Positions 1 to 12,276 of a stretch of DNA of 12,276 bases are shown one piece after another (positions within the stretch are counted from its first letter, which is position 1; each line of letters begins with the position of its first letter). The stretch comes from a virus (lineage: Duplodnaviria; Heunggongvirae; Uroviricota; Caudoviricetes), in IMG/VR virus record IMGVR_UViG_2609459774_000003, positions 1 through 12,276 of that record. One strand, given 5' to 3'. The translations under genes were made by a program, and so were the position numbers. Below the pieces are notes generated by a model. The model saw nothing but the letters and a program-made list of their open reading frames with translations. It searched no databases and was not told where the DNA came from.

Positions 1-651
1 TTACCAGTCAATCCAGAGCGGACCGTGTTCAGCGTAAATATAACTGTACACATCCAGATTATATTTGTGGTCTGTTAAGAACAGGCCGCAAATACATGCC
101 GAAGCTTCCAGGGCAGCGGCTCTGTTACTGAATAACCATGTGGCAACATTCCAGCGTTTTTCTGCATCCCAGTCTTTCTCAAGGCCTGATACCATGAAGA
201 AACCGTTAGTGTTGCCATCAAATAATTCTGTTTCCAGATTTTTAAGCAATGCCTGATGGACTCTTGCCAGGTATTCCGCCGGAATTTCGCCACGAATTCT
301 GATGAGATTGTCATAAACAAACATGTTCCCCGCATATGGCGATTTTTCTTTCTTGTTTTTTAAACCAGCATCATGAGCAAACTGATCAATTTCTTCTTCC
401 GTTGGTTTCGTATTGATGTTTTGCGCTGTCGTTTCTGCAATTTTATTTGCCACACTATCTGAGTCGTGTTTATTTACAGACGCACAGAAATACAATCCGG
501 TAAACGCATCGCGCACATTACGAGCCATATTATCAGTGTCTTTTTTCGTTACCGATTCCAATGCAAGTTCGTTCAGACGATGACGAAGTGTGTGTGCTGC
601 AATCTCCTGGATTGAAGTAGGTAAATCTTTAAATTCCATCGTCAACCTCAT
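1..651 (-). CDS. Hypothetical prophage early-left operon protein (216 aa), function unknown
   Basis: Complete ORF with ATG at 651..649 and stop (TAA on minus strand) at 3..1. Its ATG overlaps the stop of the upstream small ORF (CTGATG on minus strand), suggesting translational coupling. No family recognised by eye; moderately AT-rich. Confidence 0.55.
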   Translation of the reverse strand: MRLTMEFKDLPTSIQEIAAHTLRHRLNELALESVTKKDTDNMARNVRDAFTGLYFCASVNKHDSDSVANKIAETTAQNINTKPTEEEIDQFAHDAGLKNKKEKSPYAGNMFVYDNLIRIRGEIPAEYLARVHQALLKNLETELFDGNTNGFFMVSGLEKDWDAEKRWNVATWLFSNRAAALEASACICGLFLTDHKYNLDVYSYIYAEHGPLWIDW

Positions 652-884
652 CAGTCAGAGTTTCTTGCTAACCAGCGATGCGCGCCAGCTTCGGTTTTAA
701 ACGTTTTGCTTTTGGTATACGTCATCGCGGTGAACGTGCCGTCCTGGTTGGGAAACACGCCGCACACCAGAGATTCGTTGTTGCCAAGATCGATAGTATC
801 CATGTTGACCTCATTTCCCCTTAACGCCGGGGTAGCGGAACAAAAACCTGCTGCATAGTTATTAAAGTTGAACCCTGCCGTCAT
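651..884 (-). CDS. Small prophage protein; size and position are consistent with YdaF/YdaG-like small proteins of Rac-type prophages
   Basis: ORF 884..651 on minus strand; GAGG motif 6 nt upstream of the ATG at 884. An internal ATG at 803..801 is also preceded by GAGGT with a 5-nt spacer and would give a 50-aa product, so the true start is ambiguous. Lies downstream of the leftward promoter candidate. Confidence 0.45.
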   Translation of the reverse strand: MTAGFNFNNYAAGFCSATPALRGNEVNMDTIDLGNNESLVCGVFPNQDGTFTAMTYTKSKTFKTEAGAHRWLARNSD

Positions 885-984
885 GTTCTTACGCCTCGGG
901 CTGGCTACTTAACCCCTGACCACTGCCTGGTAACTCGAGGTATTGCCCTGTATTGTGTGGGACGGGATGGGTTGGTATGGGAAA

Positions 985-1026
985 ACTATAGGAAATGCCT
1001 AATTACTTGTCAATAGGCTATGCCTA
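985..1026 (-). promoter_or_regulatory. Leftward PL-like promoter with two operator half-palindromes (OL-like)
   Basis: On the minus strand: -35 TTGACA (1013..1008), 17-bp spacer, -10 TATAGT (990..985). 13-bp dyad sites TAGGCTATGCCTA (1014..1026) and imperfect TAGGAAATGCCTA (989..1001), centres 25 bp apart. Forms a 23-bp perfect inverted repeat with the PR module. Confidence 0.45.
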
Positions 1027-1121
1027 ATAATTTGGGCGCAACCTAATAGGTGATGGTTTGTGGAAGAGGTAGTAGGAGTTAACTAACGGGAACTAGGAAT
1101 TTCCCGTCGGACCATATAAGT

Positions 1122-1598
1122 TTAAGTTCCTGTCTTGGTGATGTTCTGGCTTTTCCGTTTTGATTCTTGATTTTTCAGATAGTTAGCTACCTTCATTTCC
1201 ATTGCGGCAATGTAGGCGCGAACGTCATGATCAACCCAACTAGGCTCCGTAGCATTTCCAGATAAGATGAAAGCCACAATTGCTCTTTTTTCATCAGAGG
1301 CGGCTTGATAAAGGCTGTTTATGTCTAAAAGTTCACTTTTTGTATCTGAAGTGGATGGGGTTGGTATGGGGTATTCGTTAAGCCCCCAATGCTCTGGACC
1401 AACCACATCAGAAAAGAAACGCCATAGTTCTGGAAGTTTGTCTTTACTTATCGAACCTTTCTTAATCCAGTCATGGATTGATGGTGGTTGGACTTTGAAA
1501 TGACGTGCGATTTCCGCCTTTGATTTGACGGCTCCTGATGCAATTTTTTTGTTAATGGCCTGCTCTATCGCTCGGCCTAAGTCTTTACCACTAAGCAT
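1122..1598 (-). CDS. racR: Prophage repressor, RacR-like (158 aa)
   Basis: 158-aa ORF; sequence recalled as matching the Rac prophage repressor RacR, with an HTH-like segment near the N-terminus. AGGAGA RBS 8 nt upstream of the ATG at 1598. Divergent from the ydaS-like gene, a classic immunity-region layout. Confidence 0.8.
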   Translation of the reverse strand: MLSGKDLGRAIEQAINKKIASGAVKSKAEIARHFKVQPPSIHDWIKKGSISKDKLPELWRFFSDVVGPEHWGLNEYPIPTPSTSDTKSELLDINSLYQAASDEKRAIVAFILSGNATEPSWVDHDVRAYIAAMEMKVANYLKNQESKRKSQNITKTGT

Positions 1599-1627
1599 TG
1601 CTTAATAGTCTCCTATGCGCATCGCGT

Positions 1628-1695
1628 TAGGCAATCCCTATTCTCGATGTATTAGGCATAGCCTATTGACAATTTCATTAGGCTAAGCCTAATAT
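1628..1695 (+). promoter_or_regulatory. Rightward PR-like promoter with tripartite operator (OR-like) in the racR-ydaS intergenic region
   Basis: -35 TTGACA (1666..1671), 18-bp spacer, -10 TAATAT (1690..1695). Three 13-bp dyads TAGGC-N3-GCCTA: TAGGCAATCCCTA (1628..1640), TAGGCATAGCCTA (1653..1665), TAGGCTAAGCCTA (1679..1691), centres 25-26 bp apart. Confidence 0.5.
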
Positions 1696-1722
1696 TGTTG
1701 CGTGTTTTTTGGAGTTCATTCG

Positions 1723-2043
1723 ATGAAAAAAGATAACTATTCATTCAAACGAGCTTGTGCTGTTGTCGGTGGGCAATCAGCAATGGCTAGGCTTTTAGGT
1801 GTATCTCCTCCAAGCGTAAATCAATGGATCAAAGGTGTACGTCAGTTACCTGCTGAGAGATGTCCTGCGATTGAACGAGCAACAAAAGGTGGTGTCCTGT
1901 GTGAAGAACTTCGTCCTGATGTTGATTGGACATACTTACGACGCTCGTCATGTTATTCGCAGAATATGTCGATGAAGCAACCAAATGACGAAAACGATCA
2001 TAAAAACGCAGAAATGCATGACGTGTGGCAATCAGGCAGATGA
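1723..2043 (+). CDS. ydaS: Cro-like HTH regulator, YdaS-like
   Basis: ATG at 1723 preceded by GGAG (1711..1714); the ORF-track start at 1702 lacks an RBS. N-terminus MKKDNYSFKRACAVVGGQSAMARLLGVSPPSVNQWIKG is HTH-like and recalled as YdaS. Divergent from racR. Confidence 0.75.
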   Translation: MKKDNYSFKRACAVVGGQSAMARLLGVSPPSVNQWIKGVRQLPAERCPAIERATKGGVLCEELRPDVDWTYLRRSSCYSQNMSMKQPNDENDHKNAEMHDVWQSGR

Positions 2044-2248
2044 TCCGCATCACATCATGGGTCATGGACTGGGAGGGATGGGAACAAAGGCTGATGATTT
2101 GTTTGTTATTCCGCTGTGCCGTAAATGCCATAGCGAACTACACGCCGGGGTAAAAGATTTTGAAGAAAAACACGGCAGCCAGCTGTTGTTGCTGATTCGT
2201 TTTTTAATGCACGCGAGAAATTCGGGTGTCCTGAAGTGGAAAGCATGA
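1985..2248 (+). CDS. DUF1364/YbcO-like Cys/His-rich putative zinc-dependent nuclease
   Basis: 87-aa ORF with CxxC ... HH ... PLCRKCHSELH pattern resembling nin-region YbcO-type proteins. Its 5' end overlaps the ydaS-like ORF (start ambiguous, 1985 or 2018); its stop TGA (2246..2248) abuts the rusA ATG. Confidence 0.55.
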   Translation: MTKTIIKTQKCMTCGNQADDPHHIMGHGLGGMGTKADDLFVIPLCRKCHSELHAGVKDFEEKHGSQLLLLIRFLMHARNSGVLKWKA

Positions 2249-2614
2249 ATGACTGAACGCATAGAATTTGTTTTGCCTTACCCGCCAACGGTGAACACTT
2301 ACTGGCGACGTCGTGGCAGCACATATTTTGTATCAAAAGCCGGTGAGCGTTATCGCCGTGATGTGGCGCTTATTGTTCGCCAGCAGCGACTGAAATTAAA
2401 CCTGTCCGGACGGCTGGCGATAAAGATTATTGCAGAGCCACCGGATAAACGTCGTCGTGACCTGGACAATATCCTGAAAGCACCACTGGATGCGCTGACG
2501 CATGCCGGACTTCTCATAGACGACGAGCAGTTTGATGAAATCAATATTGTGCGCGGTCAGCTCGTTCCTGGGGGGCGGCTGGGCGTGAAGATTTACAAAA
2601 TTGAGAGTGAGTGA
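2249..2614 (+). CDS. rusA: Holliday junction resolvase RusA
   Basis: 121-aa ORF; the RRRDLDN segment and overall size match the RusA family. ATG follows immediately after the upstream stop (ATGAATG), and its stop overlaps the next start (GTGA). Confidence 0.85.
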   Translation: MTERIEFVLPYPPTVNTYWRRRGSTYFVSKAGERYRRDVALIVRQQRLKLNLSGRLAIKIIAEPPDKRRRDLDNILKAPLDALTHAGLLIDDEQFDEINIVRGQLVPGGRLGVKIYKIESE

Positions 2615-3168
2615 TCGTAAATATGATATACCCGGAAATTACAGGCAAAAGCGGCGAGCATTTACGTCTAAAAACGCTGGAAGCCGTCTGGATCCAGGGG
2701 AAATTACGGATGTGGGGGCGTTGGTCGTACATAGGTGGTGGCAAACCAGGAAATATGTTCAATCAGTTGCTGGCATCCAAAACACTTACAAAAACTGCGA
2801 TCAATGAAGCTCTGCGCAGAATAAAAAAATCAGGGATTGATAAAACTGAGCTGGAAGCGTTTTTGCGTGAGATGATCAACAGCAAGCAAAAGAGCGGGCT
2901 GGCTTATTGTACTGATGCCGAGGCGTTATGTATCGATCGGGTAATTAGTGAAGTGTTGGCAGAGCATCCGGGATTGATTTGTATCCTCCGACAAAGATAT
3001 GAAGGGCTGGGTATGAGCAAGCTGAAAATGGCAGAACAGTTAAAAAAGAATCACCCTGACTGGAGCCTGAAAACTTGTAGAAATCGCATTGATGTTTGGT
3101 TGGCGATGGCTGAAACCATGCTTTTCCTTCCAATGTGCGTGGCACTTCGGTGCTTTTCTGATAACTGA
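2611..3168 (+). CDS. Putative late-gene antiterminator Q-like protein
   Basis: 185-aa ORF in the canonical position after the nin/rusA genes. GTG start at 2611 overlaps the rusA stop; alternative ATG at 2623. Assignment is mainly positional, with weak recalled similarity to small Q-family proteins. Confidence 0.5.
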   Translation: MIVNMIYPEITGKSGEHLRLKTLEAVWIQGKLRMWGRWSYIGGGKPGNMFNQLLASKTLTKTAINEALRRIKKSGIDKTELEAFLREMINSKQKSGLAYCTDAEALCIDRVISEVLAEHPGLICILRQRYEGLGMSKLKMAEQLKKNHPDWSLKTCRNRIDVWLAMAETMLFLPMCVALRCFSDN

Positions 3169-3197
3169 TGATAGAAGTGCATCAGCTATCAATCTTG

Positions 3198-3226
3198 TTG
3201 ACGTTCATCAAGGTCTGGACAATACT
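3198..3226 (+). promoter_or_regulatory. Candidate sigma70 promoter downstream of Q (pR'-like position)
   Basis: TTGACG (3198..3203), 17-bp spacer, AATACT (3221..3226), about 30 bp upstream of the ATPase start. The -10 is weak; this is a sequence-only guess. Confidence 0.25.
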
Positions 3227-3257
3227 TACGTTAAGTTCCAACATATGGAAGATAAGA

Positions 3258-4448
3258 ATGATATTTACACGATTGAGATTTATCAATTTGTACGCTTTTG
3301 AGGATGCAGAGCTTAACCTGTCCTATCCAAGGAAACCTGTAAACATGCCTCTTGATGGGGAGTTTTTGGCTGGACGGCCTAAATTTTACTATAAAAAAGT
3401 CTGTATCATAACGGGGGGAAATGCTTCAGGTAAGACGTCACTAGGGCGAATTCTTTGTGGAATTCAGGTGTTTCTAAGAACCAAAGAGTTGCGGAGTAAT
3501 CTGCGAGTGAATAATAAAAATAATGATGCTTCGTTTGAAGTGGACTTTGCTACGGAGGATCATTTTCATCATCGTTTGTATGTACGCTTTGCTACCAGTG
3601 AAGGCGGAGCGCACATAATCAAAGAAATTAAATATGGTTTTGTTCAAATAGCATTAAATGATTCTTGCCATAAAACCACAGAAAAACTGAATCAACTCTT
3701 TTCTGGAAGGGCCCCAGAAGATACAGAATATTTTTTTCAGGAACTAGCTACTGATAGCGAACCAGTTGTATTGGAGTTTTTCAAGCAACTTAAGTTTTTT
3801 GGTGGATGGTACTATTTGTTGTCTGAAACTAAAGAGAGTACCACTGCAATTTCAGGAATGAATAAAAATATTCTTGAAAGGATAATTCGCACTTTCGATT
3901 CAAGTATTATAGGAGTTACCGAGATGCTGGAGTCTGAAAGTGACGGGGATGAAAATAAATCATCTGCGGTTTATCTGATTAAATTTAAAAACTCTGATTC
4001 TCTTGTCGTTACCAGTAAAGGTGAAATAATTAACTCAGACCGTCTTTCTCGAGGAACATACGAGGCAGTGACGGTAGCGCATTTTATAAGCGCTATTATC
4101 TCTGATTGTGAAAGACTAGGTAAGCAATCTCTAATACCATCAATGACTTATTTTCTTGACGAGAAATTGGCTTATACACATTCAGAGTTAGAGCGTATGA
4201 TTGTGGCGCTGATTATATCTAATTTGAAAGAAAATACTCAGTTTTTCTATACAACGCATAACATGGATATTTTTGAGTTGGATCTGCCTGTTCACTCGTT
4301 CATTTTTATTAAAAAAACGAAAGACTATTCGGAGTTTGTTGAAGCAAATTCAGTTGTTAAAAAAAATGACCGTAGCATGCGAAACGCTGTTGAGAGAGAT
4401 GTCTTTGGTGTCTTACCTGACACATCATTAGTATCGGAGCTACTCTGA
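3258..4448 (+). CDS. OLD/AAA_21-like ABC-type ATPase (396 aa), candidate defence-system ATPase
   Basis: N-terminus MIFTRLRFINLYAFEDAELNL typical of SMC/RecF-like ABC ATPases. Walker A ITGGNASGKTS, ABC signature-like LSRGT, Walker B YFLDE, H-loop TTHN, with about 200 aa inserted between Walker A and the signature. AT-rich relative to flanks. The ORF-track start at 3168 is an RBS-less upstream extension; ATG at 3258 chosen. Confidence 0.75.
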   Translation: MIFTRLRFINLYAFEDAELNLSYPRKPVNMPLDGEFLAGRPKFYYKKVCIITGGNASGKTSLGRILCGIQVFLRTKELRSNLRVNNKNNDASFEVDFATEDHFHHRLYVRFATSEGGAHIIKEIKYGFVQIALNDSCHKTTEKLNQLFSGRAPEDTEYFFQELATDSEPVVLEFFKQLKFFGGWYYLLSETKESTTAISGMNKNILERIIRTFDSSIIGVTEMLESESDGDENKSSAVYLIKFKNSDSLVVTSKGEIINSDRLSRGTYEAVTVAHFISAIISDCERLGKQSLIPSMTYFLDEKLAYTHSELERMIVALIISNLKENTQFFYTTHNMDIFELDLPVHSFIFIKKTKDYSEFVEANSVVKKNDRSMRNAVERDVFGVLPDTSLVSELL

Positions 4449-4981
4449 TGGCGGGGTTGTCTAAAATAAGAATAATTTTTGTCGAAGGTGAAACAGAAAA
4501 CTCTCTTTTTCTGAAGATGAAACAACAGAGAGTTATTGATGCCAAATCAATTGTAAAAAGAAACTTTTGGCAAGAGAGCATAAGAAATTATGCGATTACT
4601 ATTCCGAAGGGAAGTGATATACTAATTGTCTTTGATAGTGATGAAGTGGAGCAATCTGCAAGATTCATTGAAAATGTAAAGTTCCTTAAAAACAGAGGGC
4701 ATAAAGTTTATCTTTTGCAGCAGAAAAGAAATTTTGAGGAGGAGTTGGCCTGGTGTTGCGGAATTCCTGTAAAAAAACTAATTGCTGGGTTCTGTGCAAA
4801 AAAAACATCGGGTATAAATGATTTCAAGAGAGATTTTATTGCTTGTAACAATCAACTTTCAAAGTTACTGAAAATGGGCATGCAGGAAACTAAGTGGTTT
4901 ACAAGAGATTTACATGCTGTATTGGAGCCTGTTGCAAGTTTTAAGTCATCTTTTTCTAAACATTTCAGGTTAACAAGATGA
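4448..4981 (+). CDS. Small TOPRIM-domain protein (177 aa), putative nuclease partner of the ATPase
   Basis: N-terminal IIFVEGETE (conserved TOPRIM glutamate) and ILIVFDSDE (DxD motif). ATG overlaps the ATPase stop (TGATG), with GGAG 8 nt upstream. AT-rich like its partner. Confidence 0.7.
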   Translation: MAGLSKIRIIFVEGETENSLFLKMKQQRVIDAKSIVKRNFWQESIRNYAITIPKGSDILIVFDSDEVEQSARFIENVKFLKNRGHKVYLLQQKRNFEEELAWCCGIPVKKLIAGFCAKKTSGINDFKRDFIACNNQLSKLLKMGMQETKWFTRDLHAVLEPVASFKSSFSKHFRLTR

Positions 4982-5116
4982 TTTATTTTCTTTTTTGTTC
5001 AGCTGATTGTTTTTGTTTGTAAAATGTCTTGATTTTTTGCCAATAAACTGTTTCAATCCAGCTACGCTTCGCAAAGCTGTACCGCGAGGCGAATAGCAGA
5101 CATGGACACCTGAAAG

Positions 5117-5140
5117 AACCCGCTTTATGCGGGTTTTTTT
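5117..5140 (+). terminator. Rho-independent terminator
   Basis: Stem AACCCGC / GCGGGTT with loop TTTAT, followed by a T7 run (5134..5140). Confidence 0.7.
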
Positions 5141-5263
5141 ATGCCTGAAAAACGGCACAGAACATTAAACGCGCTGGTAGTTGTGAATACTGGTCTTTCA
5201 GCTTGCTGGCTTTTTCGACAAGAGGTATTGGTATATCACGTTAACCAGAAAAGGGAAAAAGGC

Positions 5264-5461
5264 ATGCTAAAACAGCAGGATATGACCGAAACCGCCAGAG
5301 TGGTGTTTAATGAATTAAGCGTCACCGAACCGGCGACCGTCGGGGAAATTGCGCAGAATACTTACCTTTCACGCGAACGCTGCCAGTTAATACTGACTCA
5401 GCTTGTTATGGCGGGTCTGGCAGATTATCAGTTCGGTTGTTACAGACGCCTTCCGCAGTGA
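5264..5461 (+). CDS. Small hypothetical protein (65 aa)
   Basis: ATG at 5264 preceded by a purine-rich AAGGGAAAAAGG stretch. The longer ORF-track version (5141) would begin inside the terminator T-run and is unlikely. Confidence 0.45.
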   Translation: MLKQQDMTETARVVFNELSVTEPATVGEIAQNTYLSRERCQLILTQLVMAGLADYQFGCYRRLPQ

Positions 5462-5611
5462 AGGCTTTTTAATTTGTGGTAATGGGCGGCTGGTGGGTGT
5501 TAGCGGCACCTGCCAGCCATCTGCTCATGCGTTGGGGTCACAAGCAAACCTCAGGCCCATCTGCTTTGCGCAAAAGCGGTATGAGCCTATCAGAGAAGTG
5601 CTTATTGATCT

Positions 5612-6661
5612 ATGGCCAATACTGTAAAAATATCCAGTTGTGAGTTAATCAACGCTGATTGCCTGGAATTTATCCAGACCTTACCGGAAAATTCTGTCGA
5701 TCTGATAGTCACAGACCCGCCATACTTTAAAGTGAAGCCCGAGGGCTGGGATAACCAGTGGGAGGGCGACGATGATTACCTGAAATGGCTGGACCAGTGT
5801 CTGGCGCAGTTCTGGCGGGTACTGAAGCCTGCCGGAAGTCTTTACCTGTTCTGTGGTCATCGCCTGGCATCTGACACCGAAATCATGATGCGTGAGCGCT
5901 TTAATGTGCTGAACCACATTATCTGGGCGAAGCCGTCCGGACGCTGGAACGGGTGCAATAAGGAAAGTCTGCGGGCGTATTTTCCGGCAACAGAGCGCAT
6001 TCTGTTTGCAGAACATTATCAGGGACCGTATCGCCCGAAAGATGATGGCTATGTGGAGCAGGGGCGCGAGCTAAAACAGCACGTCATGGCCCCGCTGATT
6101 TCTTACTTTCGTGATGCGCGTAAATCACTGGGAATAACGTCAAAACAGATAGCGGAAGCCACCGGAAAGAAAAACATGGCTTCGCACTGGTTTGGTACCA
6201 GTCAGTGGCAGTTACCGAACGAGGGTGATTACAACAAATTGCAGGCGTTGTTTGCGCGTGTTGCGGCAGAAAAACATCAGCGCGGGGAACTGGAAAAGCC
6301 ACACCACCAGCTGGTCAGCACATACAGTGAGCTGAACCGGCAGTATACGGAACTGCTGAGTGAATATAAAAATTTGCGGCGGTATTTCGGTGTGACGGCG
6401 CAGGTTCCGTACACCGATGTCTGGACGCATAAACCGGTGCAGTACTATCCAGGAAAACATCCGTGCGAAAAACCGGCAGAAATGCTGCAGCAGATAATCA
6501 ACGCGAGCAGTCGTCCGGGAGACCTGGTTGCAGATTTTTTTATGGGTTCAGGTTCAACGGTAAAAGCGGCGATGGCACTGGGGCGTTGTGCGATTGGTGT
6601 TGAGCTGGAGACCGGACGTTTTGAACAGACAGTCAGGGAAGTTCAGGATTTAATCGTTTGA
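5612..6661 (+). CDS. DNA N6-adenine/N4-cytosine methyltransferase, beta-class (orphan, phage-type)
   Basis: Motif IV DPPY (VTDPPYF) near the N-terminus and motif I FxGxG (DFFMGSGST) near the C-terminus, the beta-class order. No adjacent restriction endonuclease is visible. Confidence 0.85.
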   Translation: MANTVKISSCELINADCLEFIQTLPENSVDLIVTDPPYFKVKPEGWDNQWEGDDDYLKWLDQCLAQFWRVLKPAGSLYLFCGHRLASDTEIMMRERFNVLNHIIWAKPSGRWNGCNKESLRAYFPATERILFAEHYQGPYRPKDDGYVEQGRELKQHVMAPLISYFRDARKSLGITSKQIAEATGKKNMASHWFGTSQWQLPNEGDYNKLQALFARVAAEKHQRGELEKPHHQLVSTYSELNRQYTELLSEYKNLRRYFGVTAQVPYTDVWTHKPVQYYPGKHPCEKPAEMLQQIINASSRPGDLVADFFMGSGSTVKAAMALGRCAIGVELETGRFEQTVREVQDLIV

Positions 6662-6710
6662 AACGGATGAGATTGCAGAATTAATTACGCACCATTATTA
6701 TTCTGCTCCC

Positions 6711-6786
6711 GGCCCTTTAGCTCAGTGGTGAGAGCGAGCGACTCATAATCGCCAGGTCGCTGGTTCAAATCCAGCAAGGGCCACCA
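6711..6786 (+). tRNA. ileZ: tRNA-Ile2 (anticodon CAU, lysidine type; could be annotated tRNA-Met by software)
   Basis: Manually folded cloverleaf: acceptor GGCCCTT/AAGGGCC, D-stem GCTC/GAGC, anticodon loop CTCATAA, T-arm GCTGG-TTCAAAT-CCAGC, encoded CCA. Closely resembles E. coli tRNA-Ile2. Confidence 0.8.
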
Positions 6787-6793
6787 TCACATA

Positions 6794-6870
6794 CCGCCAT
6801 TAGCTCATCAGGATAGAGCGCCAGCCTTCGAAGCTGGTTGCGCGGGGTTCGAGTCCTCGATGGCGGTCCA
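6794..6870 (+). tRNA. argN: tRNA-Arg (anticodon UCG)
   Basis: Manually folded cloverleaf: acceptor CCGCCAT/ATGGCGG (unusual C1:G72), D-stem GCTC/GAGC, anticodon stem CCAGC/GCTGG, loop CTTCGAA, T-arm with one G:U pair, encoded CCA. Confidence 0.7.
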
Positions 6871-6883
6871 TTATCTGCATTAT

Positions 6884-6960
6884 GCGTTGTTAGCTCAGCC
6901 GGACAGAGCAATTGCCTTCTAAGCAATCGGTCACTGGTTCGAATCCAGTACAACGCGCCA
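6884..6960 (+). tRNA. argO: tRNA-Arg (anticodon UCU)
   Basis: Manually folded cloverleaf: acceptor GCGTTGT/ACAACGC, D-stem GCTC/GAGC, anticodon stem ATTGC/GCAAT, loop CTTCTAA, T-arm ACTGG-TTCGAAT-CCAGT, encoded CCA. Confidence 0.8.
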
Positions 6961-6974
6961 CGCTTATTTTTCCA

Positions 6975-6997
6975 GGCTCGCTTCGGCGGGCCTTTTT
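6975..6997 (+). terminator. Rho-independent terminator after the tRNA cluster
   Basis: Stem GGCTCGC / GCGGGCC (one G:U pair) with a UUCG tetraloop, followed by TTTTT (6993..6997). Confidence 0.6.
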
Positions 6998-7135
6998 CAT
7001 ATCCGCGCCACGCCCGGCGCACATCAAAAAACCACAGAGCCTTTCAGGGATGAGCTTACGGGATGGTCAGTGTGACTTTCTCTGTGGGCTGGTCACCCCC
7101 GGGCGCAGGCTCACCCACTAAAAGGAAAAGTCACG

Positions 7136-7561
7136 ATGTTTGGTATTTTCAAAAAGAAAACCCGCAAGGCCATTACCGAGGTGAAGAAGATGGAGAACCG
7201 TGACGCAGTGGAGGCGACCGTCTGGGGCGCGTACTCCATTGCATACGCTGACGGCACCTGTGACGCGAAAGAAATCGCGGTACTGGAAAAAACCATTGCA
7301 GCACTTCCTGTCTTTGCGCCGTTCTCCGGTGAGATTGCACAAATGAGTGCAAATATCCGCGCCCGTTATGAAGCGTCGCCGCGTTCTGCCAATGCCGAAG
7401 CTCTTCGTCAGCTGGCTGATGTTGCCGGTACTGATGATGCAGTTAATGTGCTGTGCCTGTGTCTGGATATCGCTGACCAGGACGGTATCGGTCAGGAAGA
7501 AGAAGCGCAACTGAAGAAAATTGCGCAGGCGCTGCAGTTGCCGCTGGAGCAGTACCTGTGA
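7136..7561 (+). CDS. TerB-like domain protein (tellurite-resistance TerB family fold), cargo gene downstream of the tRNAs
   Basis: 141-aa ORF with AAGGA RBS; acidic helical protein whose ADG/DQDG and EEEAQL features resemble TerB-like domains. Sits where stx or other cargo genes sit in related phages. Confidence 0.5.
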   Translation: MFGIFKKKTRKAITEVKKMENRDAVEATVWGAYSIAYADGTCDAKEIAVLEKTIAALPVFAPFSGEIAQMSANIRARYEASPRSANAEALRQLADVAGTDDAVNVLCLCLDIADQDGIGQEEEAQLKKIAQALQLPLEQYL

Positions 7562-8559
7562 AAAGTGCGCGCCTTGTGCTGGCTGTCATCCTGTTGTTTC
7601 TGGTACAGGCTGCAGCCGTACACACGTTGTACGGGTATATCGATTATCTTGCCAGAAATCTGTTGCCGGACATGTGTGATGAAGACTGGTTGTACCGGCA
7701 CGCCAGAATCAAACGCTGCCTGCGAAAAGATGCGGTGACAGCCCGGGGATTTGTGCGCTGGGATGGCGTAGAGGGAACACCTGTATTGCCAGCGGGAACG
7801 CAGATCCAGCGTGATGATCAGGTGACCTTCACCACGACGGCGACGGTGACCGCAGCCGATGGTCTTCTCCGGGTGCCTGTTGTGGCAGATGAACCGGGGG
7901 CGGCGGGGAATACGGATGATGGTATTGCCATGCAACTGGGAACACCCGTCAGTGGTCTGCCGTCCACAGGGTACGCGGACACCATTACAGACGGTGAAGA
8001 TATTGAAAATCTGGAAATATGGCGTGCCCGCGTTATGGAACGTTATTACTACATTCCACAGGGGGGCGCAGACCCTGATTATGTTATCTGGGCGAAAGAA
8101 GTTCAGGGTATTAACCGTGCATGGACTTTCAGACACTGGAAAGGCATTGGAACGGTTGGCGTGATGGTGGCGACAAACGATCCGGAACATCCGGCTCCGG
8201 ATGAAAGCGTCATTAATGCAGTCAGAGAACACATTCTTCCTCTGACACCGGTTGCCGGAAGTGGATTGTATGTATTCGGTGCCACAGAAAAAGTCATCCC
8301 GATGACGATTGCATTATCGAAAGACACACCGCAGATCAGGACTGCAATAAAAGCAGAGCTGAATGCACTGATGTTACGGGATGGTGTGCCAGAGGGGCGT
8401 ATGTATCTGTCCAGAATCAGTGAGGCCATCAGTTTGTCTGCTGGTGAAGTGGCTCACCGGTTAATCGTCCCTTCATCGGATATTGACCTGGGGGAGACCG
8501 AGCTTCCGGTGCTCGGCGAGATCACCTGGCAGGCTTATGACCCGGCAAGGAGTAAATAA
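7558..8559 (+). CDS. Baseplate J-like protein (Mu gp47 / P2 gpJ family), probably 5'-truncated or fused at a deletion junction
   Basis: The conserved baseplate-J core appears only about 25 aa from the start. The preceding N-terminus (GTG start overlapping the TerB-like stop) is hydrophobic and unlike the family. The rest is GC-rich and tail-like. Confidence 0.6.
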   Translation: MKSARLVLAVILLFLVQAAAVHTLYGYIDYLARNLLPDMCDEDWLYRHARIKRCLRKDAVTARGFVRWDGVEGTPVLPAGTQIQRDDQVTFTTTATVTAADGLLRVPVVADEPGAAGNTDDGIAMQLGTPVSGLPSTGYADTITDGEDIENLEIWRARVMERYYYIPQGGADPDYVIWAKEVQGINRAWTFRHWKGIGTVGVMVATNDPEHPAPDESVINAVREHILPLTPVAGSGLYVFGATEKVIPMTIALSKDTPQIRTAIKAELNALMLRDGVPEGRMYLSRISEAISLSAGEVAHRLIVPSSDIDLGETELPVLGEITWQAYDPARSK

Positions 8560-9518
8560 TGGATTCGTTACAGGATGATTATACAAAGCTGCTGTACGGA
8601 CTGATGCCGCCGGGGCCTGCATGGAGCGATACCGACGGCGTGCTTGATGGTCTGGCACCATCGCTTGTACGTGTTCATCAGCGGACTGATGAACTGATGG
8701 CTGAAATCGATCCTGGTCAGTCAACAGAGCTGATTGAACGTTATGAAGAATTGTATGGTTTACCTGACACCTGCTCTCCTGTTGGAGCCCAGACATTACG
8801 CCAGCGTCAGCAACGGCTGGAAGCAAAAGCCAATGTGGCTGGTGGCATAAATGAGCAGTTCTTCCTGGAGCAGCTTGAGGCGCTGGGATATACCGGCGTG
8901 ACGATCGAACAGTTCCAGCACCTGGATGCAAGCCCCGATCCGGAATGGGGTGATCGCTGGCGTTATTTCTGGCGTGTGACGTTGCCGGTGGATGCCGGTG
9001 CTCAGTGGCAGACATGTTCGGACACCTGTAACACACCGATCCGGACGTGGGGTGATACGGTTGCGGAGTGCGTGATTAATAAATTATGTCCGTCGCATAC
9101 TGTTGTCCTTTTTGCATATCCGGATGAGTCTGGTGAAGGGCAACAAGCCGCCCTGACTATAAACAGCCTCTCCTTTCAGGCCGGACACAAGACGACTGAG
9201 CCATTAGCGATTAATCATACAGGTGTTCATTTTGCGGTTGTTCCGGCACTGACAGGTAAGCCGCTGACAATTAACCGGATTAACTTTTATGCCGCCCGTC
9301 CGATGGCAGAACCACTGGTACTCAGCAGGGCGCAATTGCACTCAGGTCTGCCGACAACGGACCCCATGACCATGAACAGCGCACAGTTGCAGACGGGATA
9401 CAGGACCCGCTCCCCCGTACCGGTTAACAGTATGCAGTTGCAGACAGCCAGCAGAACCCGTGAACCGTTATTGATTAATCACCCGGGACTGCATTTTGCT
9501 GTGGTCACGTCCGAATGA
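8559..9518 (+). CDS. YmfQ-like (DUF2313, Mu gp48-like) baseplate protein with a ~125-aa repeat-containing C-terminal extension
   Basis: ATG overlaps the upstream stop (TAATG), with AAGGAG RBS. The N-terminal ~190 aa is recalled as YmfQ-like. The C-terminus carries degenerate repeats (EPLAINHTGVHFAVV / EPLLINHPGLHFAVV; AQLHSG / AQLQTG / MQLQTA). Confidence 0.7.
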   Translation: MDSLQDDYTKLLYGLMPPGPAWSDTDGVLDGLAPSLVRVHQRTDELMAEIDPGQSTELIERYEELYGLPDTCSPVGAQTLRQRQQRLEAKANVAGGINEQFFLEQLEALGYTGVTIEQFQHLDASPDPEWGDRWRYFWRVTLPVDAGAQWQTCSDTCNTPIRTWGDTVAECVINKLCPSHTVVLFAYPDESGEGQQAALTINSLSFQAGHKTTEPLAINHTGVHFAVVPALTGKPLTINRINFYAARPMAEPLVLSRAQLHSGLPTTDPMTMNSAQLQTGYRTRSPVPVNSMQLQTASRTREPLLINHPGLHFAVVTSE

Positions 9519-9541
9519 CATAAAATAAAAGGAGAGCCGCT

Positions 9542-10591
9542 TTGAATATTATTAAACTCGAAAGTTTTCGACAAATTCCGGCGAATGAGGGATTGTGCGA
9601 GAACTATTATTCAACAAATATTATTTCAGCACTGAACGAAAACGGTGTCACGCTTATCAATGATATGTCCGGTTCTGTAACATCCGTCTGTCGTGGCACT
9701 CAGGCCGTAAATACTGTAGAAAGAACGGGGCTGATTTTTACGACACCCTCATATGTCACACTGTACAGCACACTTCCGGACTTAAAAGCCTCAGCTGTAC
9801 AGCTGGGATTTCGTCTGACATTAAGTGCGGGAAAGAAATATTCATCTTCGCCATCCCACATCAGGATTAATGGCTATTCATTTACAACCCCGTATCCTGA
9901 TGAAGCAGCCAGTTATTACTATGAAATTTTCGCAACGCGAAACGAAAACGGCTATGTCTCAGCCAGTCTGTACTGCAACCGCTCATTAGTTGGAAATACA
10001 TCGTTTTATGTACCAGATGACCGGACTGACAAAATTCAGGTGAGTATTGGTGGTGGTAACAATATTTTTTCATCGGGTGCATCCGGCACGTTAATGCTGG
10101 GTGATATGTACTGTGGAACAGTGACATACGGTAGAAATAATAGTGCAGAACCCGCCCTGCTCGGAAGCATTGAGGTCAGATACAGCCCGGTAACGGCATT
10201 TACCGGTGGAAGCGCCAAAAACTCACTGAATAAAGATATTGTCACGGGGCTGAACACCTCTGACAGCGAGGCCGGATATCTGATGCTCTCGCCGTCCCTG
10301 AATGCAGCACAGGCCACGTTTGGTGCGGTGGATAACAGCAACAGTGATGTTGTGGCCGTTATGGCCTCGGTCACTTACCGCGGTGCTGATGCCCCCAATA
10401 ACCGCCTGGCCTGGAAAGTGAAAAATGGCAGCCATGAAGGCGCAACGATTACAGAGAATGGCGTACAAAGCGACACAAACAGCTGGACGACTGTCTCACA
10501 GAGTTTTATGACCCAACCAGGAGGGAGCACTCCCTTCGCTAAGGGTGAACTGACTTTTACAGCGGAATTGTTTAATCAGGCAAGGACATAA
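9542..10591 (+). CDS. Hypothetical tail-associated protein (349 aa), S/T/N/G-rich, possible receptor-binding or cargo protein
   Basis: TTG start with a strong AAGGAG RBS 7 nt upstream. Lower GC than the neighbouring baseplate genes. No recognisable catalytic motifs; composition is typical of beta-rich fibre or lectin-like domains. Confidence 0.55.
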   Translation: MNIIKLESFRQIPANEGLCENYYSTNIISALNENGVTLINDMSGSVTSVCRGTQAVNTVERTGLIFTTPSYVTLYSTLPDLKASAVQLGFRLTLSAGKKYSSSPSHIRINGYSFTTPYPDEAASYYYEIFATRNENGYVSASLYCNRSLVGNTSFYVPDDRTDKIQVSIGGGNNIFSSGASGTLMLGDMYCGTVTYGRNNSAEPALLGSIEVRYSPVTAFTGGSAKNSLNKDIVTGLNTSDSEAGYLMLSPSLNAAQATFGAVDNSNSDVVAVMASVTYRGADAPNNRLAWKVKNGSHEGATITENGVQSDTNSWTTVSQSFMTQPGGSTPFAKGELTFTAELFNQART

Positions 10592-10621
10592 TTCTGATAT
10601 TTCATTCACGGGAGGTTTAAT

Positions 10622-11731
10622 ATGCACAGAATTGACACTCCGACAGCAGTTAAAGATAAATTTGGCCCGGGCAAGAACGGATTTACTGACGGGAATATTC
10701 GTACAGGGCGTCATGCCACCTGGCTGAACAGTGCCATGTGGGATGCCCTTCAGGAGGAAATCTGTGGTGTCATTGAGAAGGCCGGGATAGAACTGAATAA
10801 AGAGGAACACGACCAGTTATATAAAGCCATATTATTACTGGTTGGCGGTGCGATTAACGAAGAGGCATTGCTGATAAAAAATAATCTTTCGGATGTCGAA
10901 GACAGTGATGAGGCTGTTGAAAACCTCGGATTAAAACCCACGGTGGATAAGGCAAAAAATGCCGTTCAGCGTGATGGAGACACCATGACCGGGGAGCTGA
11001 AAATCCGTGGCGTTAATGCACTGAGGATTTTCAACGAAGCCTTTGGTCTGATTTTTCGTCGTTCGGAAGAGTGTCTGCACCTCATTCCTACCCGGGAAAA
11101 TCAGGGCGAGAGTGGTGATATTGGGCCGCTACGCCCCTTTACGCTTAATCTCAGGACCGGTCGCATAACTATGGGACATGGTCTGGATGTTACAGAAGAT
11201 GTATTTGCAGGCCGTTTTGCGATTAACAGCAGTAACGGAACGTGGATTCAGATGCGTGACAACAACGTTATTTTCGGGAAAAACAGGATAAATACTGATG
11301 CTGCTCAGGCGCTTCTGCGTCAGGATCATGCAGACAGAAAGTATTTCCTGGCTGGTCTTGGGAATAAGCAGTTTGGCATTTACATGATAAATAATAGCCG
11401 TACGGATAATGGTACGGACGGTCAGGCGTATATGGATGATGCGGGAAACTGGCGATGCGGGCGTCAGGTTATACCGTCAGACTACGGAAACTTCGATGCC
11501 CGCTACCAGACCAAAACAGGTGGCGTACAGAATTTTCAGTATACCAGTGAGGTGTTTTACAACCCGGGCGGGAATGAGCACAGCTGGACGTTTCGAGCAC
11601 CTTCTGGTTGTGTTTTGTCAGGCATTAATGTTCAGGATACTGGCCGTAACTCTGCAGACAATATCGGTGGCGTGTATTACAAACAGGCTCAGATTTATAT
11701 TAATGGTGCATGGCGATCTGTATCAGGTTAA
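10622..11731 (+). CDS. Side tail fibre protein (Stf-like)
   Basis: N-terminus MHRIDTPTAVKDKFGPGKNGFTDGN matches the conserved N-terminus of enterobacterial prophage side tail fibres. DGDTMTGEL motif present. GGGAGG RBS. Confidence 0.8.
   Translation: MHRIDTPTAVKDKFGPGKNGFTDGNIRTGRHATWLNSAMWDALQEEICGVIEKAGIELNKEEHDQLYKAILLLVGGAINEEALLIKNNLSDVEDSDEAVENLGLKPTVDKAKNAVQRDGDTMTGELKIRGVNALRIFNEAFGLIFRRSEECLHLIPTRENQGESGDIGPLRPFTLNLRTGRITMGHGLDVTEDVFAGRFAINSSNGTWIQMRDNNVIFGKNRINTDAAQALLRQDHADRKYFLAGLGNKQFGIYMINNSRTDNGTDGQAYMDDAGNWRCGRQVIPSDYGNFDARYQTKTGGVQNFQYTSEVFYNPGGNEHSWTFRAPSGCVLSGINVQDTGRNSADNIGGVYYKQAQIYINGAWRSVSG
10913..10938. other. Candidate Hin/Gin/Pin-family invertase crossover site inside stf
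   Basis: GCTGTTGAAAACCTCGGATTAAAACC: the left half TTGAAAACC and core match the hix/gix consensus as recalled. It falls at the ENLGL-encoding constant/variable junction of the fibre gene, as in Mu G and e14 P segments. Confidence 0.4.
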
Positions 11732-11745
11732 TTAAGGAGAAAATA

Positions 11746-12276
11746 ATGGAACTCTCAAACATTACGCGTTACTACCCTGAAGACATGCCTTATGGTGACG
11801 GCATTCAGTATTTCCGTAGTGAAGACGGGCAGGATTTTTATGAATCACTGGATAAATTCACGAAGAAATACAAGCTGTGCACGCATCCTGAAACCGGCGT
11901 TATTTATTCCGTGGCGGAAGATGTATCCCGTCTTTATCCCGTTGGTTTTACCATTGTGGAAGTGGATGAACTACCGGATGGCTTTTGTATAGAGGCGCGC
12001 TGGTATTATAAAGACGGTGAAGTACTACCGGTCCCTGTTGACTACAGGCAGCAGGCAGAGTCGGAGCGTGCACGTCTTACTGCGATTGCCGAACGGGAAA
12101 TATCCGATAAGAAGACGGATTTACTTTTGGGAATCATCGGTGATGAAGAAAAAGAAAAGCTGACAGTCTGGCGCATTTACGCGAAATTGCTGCAGGCGAT
12201 GGATTTCAGCACCATCACTGATAAAACCTCATATAACGCCATTGAATGGCCCGTCTCTCCGGAAGCCTCTTCCTGA
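11746..12276 (+). CDS. Tail fibre assembly protein (Tfa-like, 176 aa)
   Basis: ATG at 11746 with AAGGAGA RBS 5 nt upstream. N-terminus MELSNITRYYPED is typical of Tfa/U-family chaperones. Stop is at the window end (12274..12276). The ORF-track start at 11710 overlaps stf and lacks an RBS. Confidence 0.8.
   Translation: MELSNITRYYPEDMPYGDGIQYFRSEDGQDFYESLDKFTKKYKLCTHPETGVIYSVAEDVSRLYPVGFTIVEVDELPDGFCIEARWYYKDGEVLPVPVDYRQQAESERARLTAIAEREISDKKTDLLLGIIGDEEKEKLTVWRIYAKLLQAMDFSTITDKTSYNAIEWPVSPEASS

Follow-up and report, generated by a model that had tools for sequence, protein, structure and literature searches.

A two-gene ABC-ATPase and TOPRIM cassette in a Rac-like prophage of Escherichia coli, a candidate AbiL-like anti-phage system

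Modules that join an ABC ATPase to a TOPRIM protein are among the most widespread architectures of bacterial immunity; yet the mechanism of one of them, the abortive-infection system AbiL, grouped with PARIS as an ATPase + TOPRIM system, is still unknown (PMC13064643). In PARIS, AriB is sequestered by AriA until the latter binds a phage trigger; once released, AriB acts as a tRNase (PMC11464382). Old of phage P2 is an abortive tRNase, active once its inactive tetramer comes apart (bioRxiv 10.64898/2026.07.10.737580), and pairs of an AAA-ATPase with a TOPRIM_OLD or RloB protein behave as antitoxin and toxin (PMC10440598). Here we describe two adjacent genes, A and B, in the viral record IMGVR_UViG_2609459774_000003, analyzed over its positions 1 to 12,276 (12,276 nucleotides (nt), below referred to as the window) and representing a decayed Rac-like lambdoid prophage of E. 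coli. The two genes probably form an anti-phage, ATPase-controlled TOPRIM nuclease, carried as a mobile cassette with its own promoter; this defense role is suggested by homology and location. Judged by its sequence, the pair is a divergent member of the AbiL-like branch of the ABC-ATPase + TOPRIM defense systems, whose architecture is already known. AbiL, RloAB, PARIS and OLD are relatives of this kind of cassette, which is neither a surprising architecture nor a new kind of system.

The ATPase and its small TOPRIM partner

The pair consists of two intact open reading frames (ORFs) on the same strand, with one nucleotide shared by the stop codon of the first and the start codon of the second (cTGATGg):

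3258..4448, + strand: gene A, ABC ATPase of the Rad50/SMC/OLD/AAA_15-21 class, 396 amino acids (aa), AbiLi-like; predicted sensor or regulator
4448..4981, + strand: gene B, compact OLD-type TOPRIM protein, 177 aa, AbiLii/RloB-like; predicted nuclease effector

Both ORFs, their 1-nt overlap (TGATG) and all motifs listed in an initial annotation of this DNA are found where that annotation had placed them. In protein A these are Walker A GGNASGKTS (aa 53–61, nt 3414–3440), the signature LSRGT (aa 263–267, nt 4044–4058), Walker B YFLDE (aa 298–302, nt 4149–4163) and the H-loop TTHN (aa 332–335, nt 4251–4262), and the long insertion suggested to separate Walker A from the signature measures approximately 200 aa. 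N55, G58, K59 and T60 of Walker A, R262, S264, G266 and T267 of the signature, D301 and E302 of Walker B, and H334 of the H-loop are invariant in 41 homologues. The family of protein A comprises more than 200 relatives, and gene A is under purifying selection, the ratio of nonsynonymous to synonymous substitution rates (dN/dS) against a 90%-identical copy being 0.036.

The best defense profile for protein A is AbiLi of PADLOC (PDLC02335, E 3.4e-25, 86.8 bits, positions 50–288 of 326, that is 73%), with mad3 (E 4.5e-11), AriA and PtuA far behind, and five homologues from other contexts match AbiLi with E from 1e-24 to 2.5e-29. Pfam yields sub-threshold matches to AAA_15 (E 4e-7, 30.3 bits; cut-off 32.1) and AAA_21 (22.2 bits), nothing meaningful is found in NCBIfam (RecF, 14.7 bits versus a cut-off of 172), and comparison with all PDB chains, both as a single sequence and as a profile, gives chance matches only. 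In the AlphaFold model (predicted local distance difference test, pLDDT, 86) the insert is compact and mostly beta; its helices are short, and a long coiled coil is absent. From the profiles, the invariant motifs and the model, protein A is therefore classified as a chromosome/defense-type (Rad50/SMC/OLD) ABC ATPase, and the OLD-type ATPase initially proposed is borne out by the AbiLi match. Assignment to transporters or to the housekeeping RecF/RecN ATPases was rejected, as no match to such families exceeds a curated cut-off.

Protein B carries VEGETE at aa 12–17 (nt 4481–4498) and FDSDE at aa 62–66 (nt 4631–4645). D63, D65, E97 and E99 are invariant in both sets of homologues considered (n = 17 and n = 56), in which E13, G14, E17, N95 and K127 are likewise invariant or conserved in at least 90% of sequences; among the 56 diverse family members N76, Q92 and F126 also reach at least 90%, so that the residue series of the family reads E13-G14-x-x-E17, D63-x-D65, N95-F-E97-x-E99, K127. 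The two-metal catalytic set of Burkholderia OLD consists of E400, E404, D455, D457, E508 and K562, and EGxxE, DxD, a helix-start acid and a lysine follow in protein B in the same order (PMC6755086). In the AlphaFold2 model of protein B (pLDDT 90.5), a beta-alpha-beta-alpha-beta-alpha-beta core is followed by helices; E13 stands just after strand beta-1 (residues 8–12) and D63 just after beta-3 (57–62), E97 and E99 are at the start of helix 96–104, and K127 comes in the expected place, as far as order is concerned. The order of elements in the model corresponds to the TOPRIM arrangement.

Alignment to P2 Old with hhalign places residues 8–157 of protein B on Old 393–543, where the EGxxE and DxD motifs of both coincide (E 0.002), and the profile of protein A on Old 258–342 (probability 23%), and hence A and B are collinear with Old. 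These are alignments of a profile with a single sequence, the homologue search for the TOPRIM region of Old having returned four near-identical fragments.

Further evidence comes from the family of protein B, which comprises 614 clusters at 50% identity in a profile search of 1.84 billion representatives. The best 150 of these clusters are 85–212 aa long, mostly 160–190 aa, and none of them is fused to an ATPase. When the 56 diverse members were scanned individually, 29 matched AbiLii (E ≤ 0.01, best 7.8e-6), and weak matches were obtained to Pfam OLD-like_TOPRIM (6/56) and RloB (2/56); single members matched Toprim, Toprim_2, OLD-like_TOPRIM_1 and mad4 (1/56), and no other family was matched by more than one member. 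Several lines of evidence, each of them weak, thus converge: the residue set, the modeled fold, the recurrent profile matches and the alignment to Old together place protein B among the OLD-type TOPRIM proteins, with AbiLii and RloB as relatives; a TOPRIM protein had been supposed from the motifs in the initial annotation. The family is poorly covered by profile libraries. Neither Pfam nor NCBIfam offers a model for it, and RefSeq labels it "hypothetical"; for these reasons defense catalogues probably undercount it.

A mobile unit and its sites

A longer frame of gene A opens at ATG 3168, overlapping the stop codon of the preceding Q-like gene as TGATG (3166–3170), and the resulting 426-aa form is common in gene calls and protein databases. 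We consider 3258 to be the correct start, since M1 of the N-terminal MIFTRL is invariant in the 41 homologues and the extension contains a conserved promoter sequence. The elements upstream of the start are:

3198..3226, + strand: predicted sigma-70-type promoter of the cassette, –35 TTGACG (3198–3203), 17-nt spacer, –10 AATACT (3221–3226), from a promoter scan and conservation
3236..3252, + strand: palindrome TTCCA-N5-TGGAA, overlapping the Shine-Dalgarno sequence GGAAGA and invariant in all five contexts compared

Approximately 65 nt 5′ of the gene A start are conserved in five unrelated genomic contexts, in which TTGACG and ATACT are invariant and the sequence farther upstream is unrelated; the region 3198..3226 would act as the promoter of the cassette. 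As an RNA hairpin the palindrome is weak and not significant (–4.8 kcal/mol, z –0.38), and it shows no covariation, and for this reason it may be an operator for autoregulation, a translational control element being the other candidate role. Nothing is conserved 3′ of the gene B stop across the compared contexts. With conservation upstream and none past this stop, the mobile unit is the promoter plus genes A and B, approximately 3190–4981.

In each of 12 independent loci, gene A is found directly 5′ of gene B, the two overlapping or separated by at most 4 nt; the loci range over Enterobacterales, the genera Acinetobacter, Oligella and Actinobacillus, and a sponge-associated genome. A and B are always adjacent, and their spacing indicates translational coupling. 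The cassette comprises these two genes only in every context seen:

after Q in Rac-like prophages (the window and strain B7A)
next to an integrase gene at the edge of another E. coli prophage
between the portal and gpA genes in P2-like prophages of Klebsiella and Erwinia, the old/tin place of P2
beside lysis genes in Acinetobacter prophages
beside an integrase gene in Acinetobacter phage Ab105-3phi
on a 12.7-kb mobilizable plasmid
in E. coli at ttcA, where no prophage is present
beside a gene for a 2792-aa polyvalent protein in another E. coli prophage
in Actinobacillus, by an apparent restriction-modification locus and ATPase/helicase genes (neighbors judged by ORF size and leading sequence)
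in Oligella, with further AAA_15 pairs and a transposase gene alongside
in a sponge-associated genome

Divergence of the two proteins is correlated, with B changing faster (A/B identities of 90/76, 73/67, 73/65 and 59/51%). Among sequenced phages and plasmids, tblastn with A and B retrieved only one Acinetobacter phage and one Acinetobacter plasmid, and a profile search of genome contigs with the B alignment yielded four loci. The pair is rare in E. coli but widespread in Proteobacteria.

Two of these neighborhoods deserve a separate description. In Oligella urethralis a transposase gene and two more genes for AAA_15 ATPases lie immediately upstream of the pair; behind each of these two ATPase genes comes a small ORF with no Pfam match (145 and 166 aa), and positions 1–3819 of this locus look like a small island of ATPase + small-partner modules. 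In the E. coli prophage with the polyvalent gene (locus 7637–14534), the cassette is tail-to-tail with the latter, which encodes LPD5, LPD1, MuF_C and LPD38 domains.

The 12 loci bear directly on the possibility, raised in the initial annotation, that the pair is a frameshift-split, decaying and functionless copy of a single-chain OLD gene. The lengths of 396 and 177 aa, in sum near the 586 aa of P2 Old, the collinearity of A and B with Old, and the degraded state of the host prophage itself would fit such an origin. We assign it hardly any probability, as all 12 independent loci show the split, with unchanged gene sizes, all catalytic motifs are intact, gene A has the low dN/dS given above, and no ATPase fusion is seen among the best 150 of the 614 B clusters; conserved splitting and purifying selection refute it.

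The compact organization of the cassette, with its overlapping genes and a promoter palindrome that could serve autoregulation, its occurrence on a small mobilizable plasmid and its persistence in a decayed prophage would also suit a toxin-antitoxin addiction module, in which B is the toxin and A the antitoxin, and which stabilizes the carrier prophage or plasmid and has no relevant anti-phage activity. AAA-ATPase + TOPRIM_OLD/RloB pairs have indeed been validated in E. coli as toxin-neutralization pairs (PMC10440598). We nevertheless regard an addiction module as distinctly unlikely. Such behavior is not exclusive of defense, and the closest systems, PARIS and AbiL, are defense systems; the cassette recurs in slots of anti-phage genes, among them sites next to an integrase gene, the old/tin hotspot of P2 and an island with restriction-modification genes. 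For some relatives this reading fails, because deletion of ariA in PARIS is not toxic (PMC9122126).

The surroundings of the cassette in the window are as follows:

3114..5020, + strand: variable cargo segment, delimited by alignment to the empty site of a related Rac-like prophage; G+C 0.362
2611..3168, + strand: Q-like late antiterminator gene (DUF1133 in RefSeq), directly upstream of the cassette; PHROG 753 "anti-termination protein Q-like", E 1.3e-74
5060..5145, + strand: strongly folding conserved segment with a hairpin and U-run CCCGC-TTTAT-GCGGG-TTTTTTT at about 5119–5140; minimum free energy –35.7 kcal/mol, z –5.35

The initial annotation had described the pair as AT-rich mobile cargo inserted downstream of Q. 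The match to PHROG 753 identifies the upstream gene as Q-like, the G+C content of the cassette is 36.2%, compared with 45.0% in the left flank and 50.2% in the right flank, and the mobility is supported by empty sites as well as by the variety of contexts listed above. In the empty-site alignment, homology stops on the left near 3113, within the diverged 3′ end of the Q gene, and restarts on the right at 5021–5043. In prophages lacking the pair, approximately 70 bp separate the Q stop from the sequence equivalent to window position 5021 onward; since the same flanks enclose only this short sequence in pair-less relatives, approximately 3114–5020 represents inserted or exchanged cargo.

Empty sites also bear on whether the pair is an accessory of phage DNA metabolism (recombination, repair or replication, by likeness to SbcCD/Rad50-Mre11 or RecF-RecR) that serves growth of the prophage. 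Nearly identical prophage backbones lack the pair, which makes it dispensable cargo; moreover, it has its own promoter and moves among unrelated sites, including non-phage islands and a plasmid. The helices in the insert of protein A are short and form no long coiled coil, the score of the protein with the NCBIfam RecF model is far below the cut-off (14.7 versus 172 bits), and its best profile is that of a defense ATPase. We hold a role in DNA metabolism to be very improbable.

Three strains, among them the enterotoxigenic E. coli B7A, match window positions 3100–5200 at 100% identity, and a further four do so at 99.5%. Out of 5426 complete E. coli genomes, the full cargo segment is present in seven, and the right flank in 691. 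A RusA gene also lies upstream of the cassette, together with the Q-like gene; on the downstream side there are a small ORF, which is conserved, a gene for a DNA methyltransferase and three tRNA genes. Relative to the B7A prophage, that of the window has a 5.7-kb internal deletion of replication-region genes at approximately 2002, joining the region after a helix-turn-helix gene to the 3′ end of a DUF968 gene. The lysis, terminase and head genes are lost as well, and a TerB-family gene (7136..7561) is followed directly by baseplate-J-like and tail-fibre genes (7558 onward; junction at approximately 7605). The cassette is kept intact, at 100% identity, despite the loss of replication, lysis and head genes.

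The segment 5060–5145 folds better than all of 200 shuffled sequences (0/200 as stable). Among the 691 E. coli genomes with this segment, many have it at an identity of 97% or more. It has no match in Rfam and was missed by a simple terminator scan. As it is positioned after Q, where a Q-dependent late promoter and terminator (tR′, 6S-like RNA) are expected, it is probably a late-promoter-proximal, tR′-like terminator. In Rac-like lambdoid prophages, the space from Q to the late-transcript terminator thereby joins the sites of defense cargo.

The three phage-borne tRNA genes at 6711–6960 have anticodon CAT, Arg-TCG and Arg-TCT. The first is called Met by ARAGORN and tRNA-Ile in RefSeq, a discrepancy that suggests a probably lysidine-modified tRNA. 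No link between the cassette and these genes was found: the same tRNAs occur in cassette-less prophages, so that no relation specific to a possible tRNase effector is seen.

Proposed mode of action

We propose that in a lysogen the pair would be expressed from the conserved promoter, and that A and B would form a complex in which the ATPase holds the TOPRIM nuclease inactive. The ATPase would sense a phage cue, either a phage protein or aberrant DNA, and the nuclease would be freed either as ATP is bound or hydrolyzed or as the complex comes apart. The nuclease would then cut nucleic acid, so that the infected cell stops and the superinfecting phage cannot multiply, as in abortive infection. 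We consider an anti-phage TOPRIM nuclease under control of the ATPase probable, by analogy with the closest studied systems, PARIS, P2 Old and the AAA-ATPase/TOPRIM pairs.

A number of observations weigh against an anti-phage nuclease of this kind. Analogy is the source of the proposed A–B interaction and trigger as well as of the substrate and the abortive phenotype, and the relatives themselves differ in target, which is DNA for GajA and tRNA for AriB and Old. Protein B of the window has no match in Pfam (TOPRIM and RloB families included), NCBIfam or PDB sequences. The match of B to the PADLOC AbiLii profile (PDLC02337) is weak (E 0.0015, 17 bits), and the hhalign probability of its alignment to P2 Old is only 14%. 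Foldseek comparison of the B model with PDB yields nothing at E ≤ 0.001, the top matches above this value being sugar isomerases and other Rossmann-like folds, and the B profile gives chance matches only against all PDB chains. Protein B belongs to PHROG 10204 (E 1e-97), and the PHROG families of both A and B are listed as "unknown function". The pair occurs in approximately 17 of the 5426 complete E. coli genomes, in three alleles, and among the papers searched we found none citing its RefSeq accessions or naming the subfamily.

The substrate is the least certain step. By analogy with AriB of PARIS and P2 Old, tRNA would be a more likely target than DNA, and we favor an RNA or tRNA target with low confidence. 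The alternative that defense holds but B is a DNase, nicking or degrading phage or host DNA in the manner of GajA or of OLD nucleases in vitro, seems to us unlikely, although to a lesser degree than an addiction module. AriB and P2 Old, whose in vivo targets are the most recently resolved, are tRNases that leave DNA intact, and the TOPRIM_OLD toxins of AAA-ATPase pairs gave a signature of translation inhibition (PMC10440598); the sequence itself does not decide between a DNase and a tRNase. With respect to further study of such a nuclease, the pair offers a small (573 aa in total), E. coli-native and tractable version of the architecture that comes with its own promoter.

Comparison with described systems

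The initial annotation had named PARIS and AbiL as possible counterparts. PARIS (AriA + AriB, class 4 OLD) was rejected: protein B lacks DUF4435 (PF14491), as do all 56 members of its family analyzed, and protein A, with 30.3 bits for AAA_15 and 22.2 bits for AAA_21, is below both thresholds of the published detection rule, which are AAA_15 ≥ 32 bits or AAA_21 ≥ 27 bits (Rousset et al., 2022; PMC9122126). Protein A is also shorter than AriA and has no long coiled-coil insert, and AriB (35 kDa) is roughly twice as large as the 177-aa protein B. The initial annotation took so small a TOPRIM protein as a hint of a distinct variant, but for this kind of system the size is not unusual, as the AbiLii profile of PADLOC has 170 positions.

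P2 Old (class 1 OLD) has the same domain order as A + B and nearly the same total length, and its old/tin slot is the one occupied by the pair in the P2-like prophages of Klebsiella and Erwinia. Old is a single chain, while the pair is two polypeptides, with aligned identity of approximately 16% and low hhalign probabilities (14% and 23%); class 1 OLD was rejected, as the genes are separate in all 12 loci. Gabija GajA (class 2 OLD) was rejected because ATPase and TOPRIM are separate here and no gene for a UvrD-like helicase (GajB) flanks the pair in the window or in B7A. Neither a reverse transcriptase nor an HNH partner, as in retron OLD or PtuA-like systems, is found next to the pair in these two prophages, and Septu was rejected since its partner genes are lacking beside the pair. 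MADS (mad1-8) was rejected as well, given the two-gene cassette in every context, the weak mad3 match and the single mad4 match among 56 B members.

The NetFlax pairs of AAA-ATPase and TOPRIM_OLD from Clostridium and Streptococcus, likened to the window pair by architecture, follow the same logic, with a TOPRIM toxin neutralized by an AAA/ABC ATPase, and have been suggested to be abortive-infection defense systems (PMC10440598). RloA/RloB of Campylobacter type I restriction-modification loci likewise combine an ATPase with a small TOPRIM-related protein (RloB, PF13707) in defense loci, and RloB is related to OLD TOPRIM and AbiLii (PMC10440598). They differ from the window pair, which lies outside a type I restriction-modification operon and whose B protein has no RloB match.

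A tentative and rather improbable possibility is that the pair represents a separate compact class of split OLD-family immunity, an "Old in two pieces" (396 + 177 aa), missed by Pfam and marginal on AbiLii, traveling as promoter-operator-A-B between cargo slots, and with trigger and target unlike those of PARIS, Old and Gabija.

AbiL of Lactococcus lactis has the same co-oriented order, with an ABC ATPase gene (AbiLi) followed by a TOPRIM/RloB-like gene (AbiLii). Its two proteins exceed A and B in length, with about 460 aa in AbiLi and about 300 aa in AbiLii. AbiL is carried on lactococcal plasmids, while the hosts of the pair are Proteobacteria and its carriers are prophages. Since protein B of the window gives only 17 bits with AbiLii and has no RloB match in Pfam, a standard scan may not call the pair AbiL. 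The AbiL-like part of the initial proposal nonetheless stands: with the AbiLi profile and the architecture matched, and AbiLii/RloB marginal for the B protein of the window, AbiL is the closest fit among the described systems.

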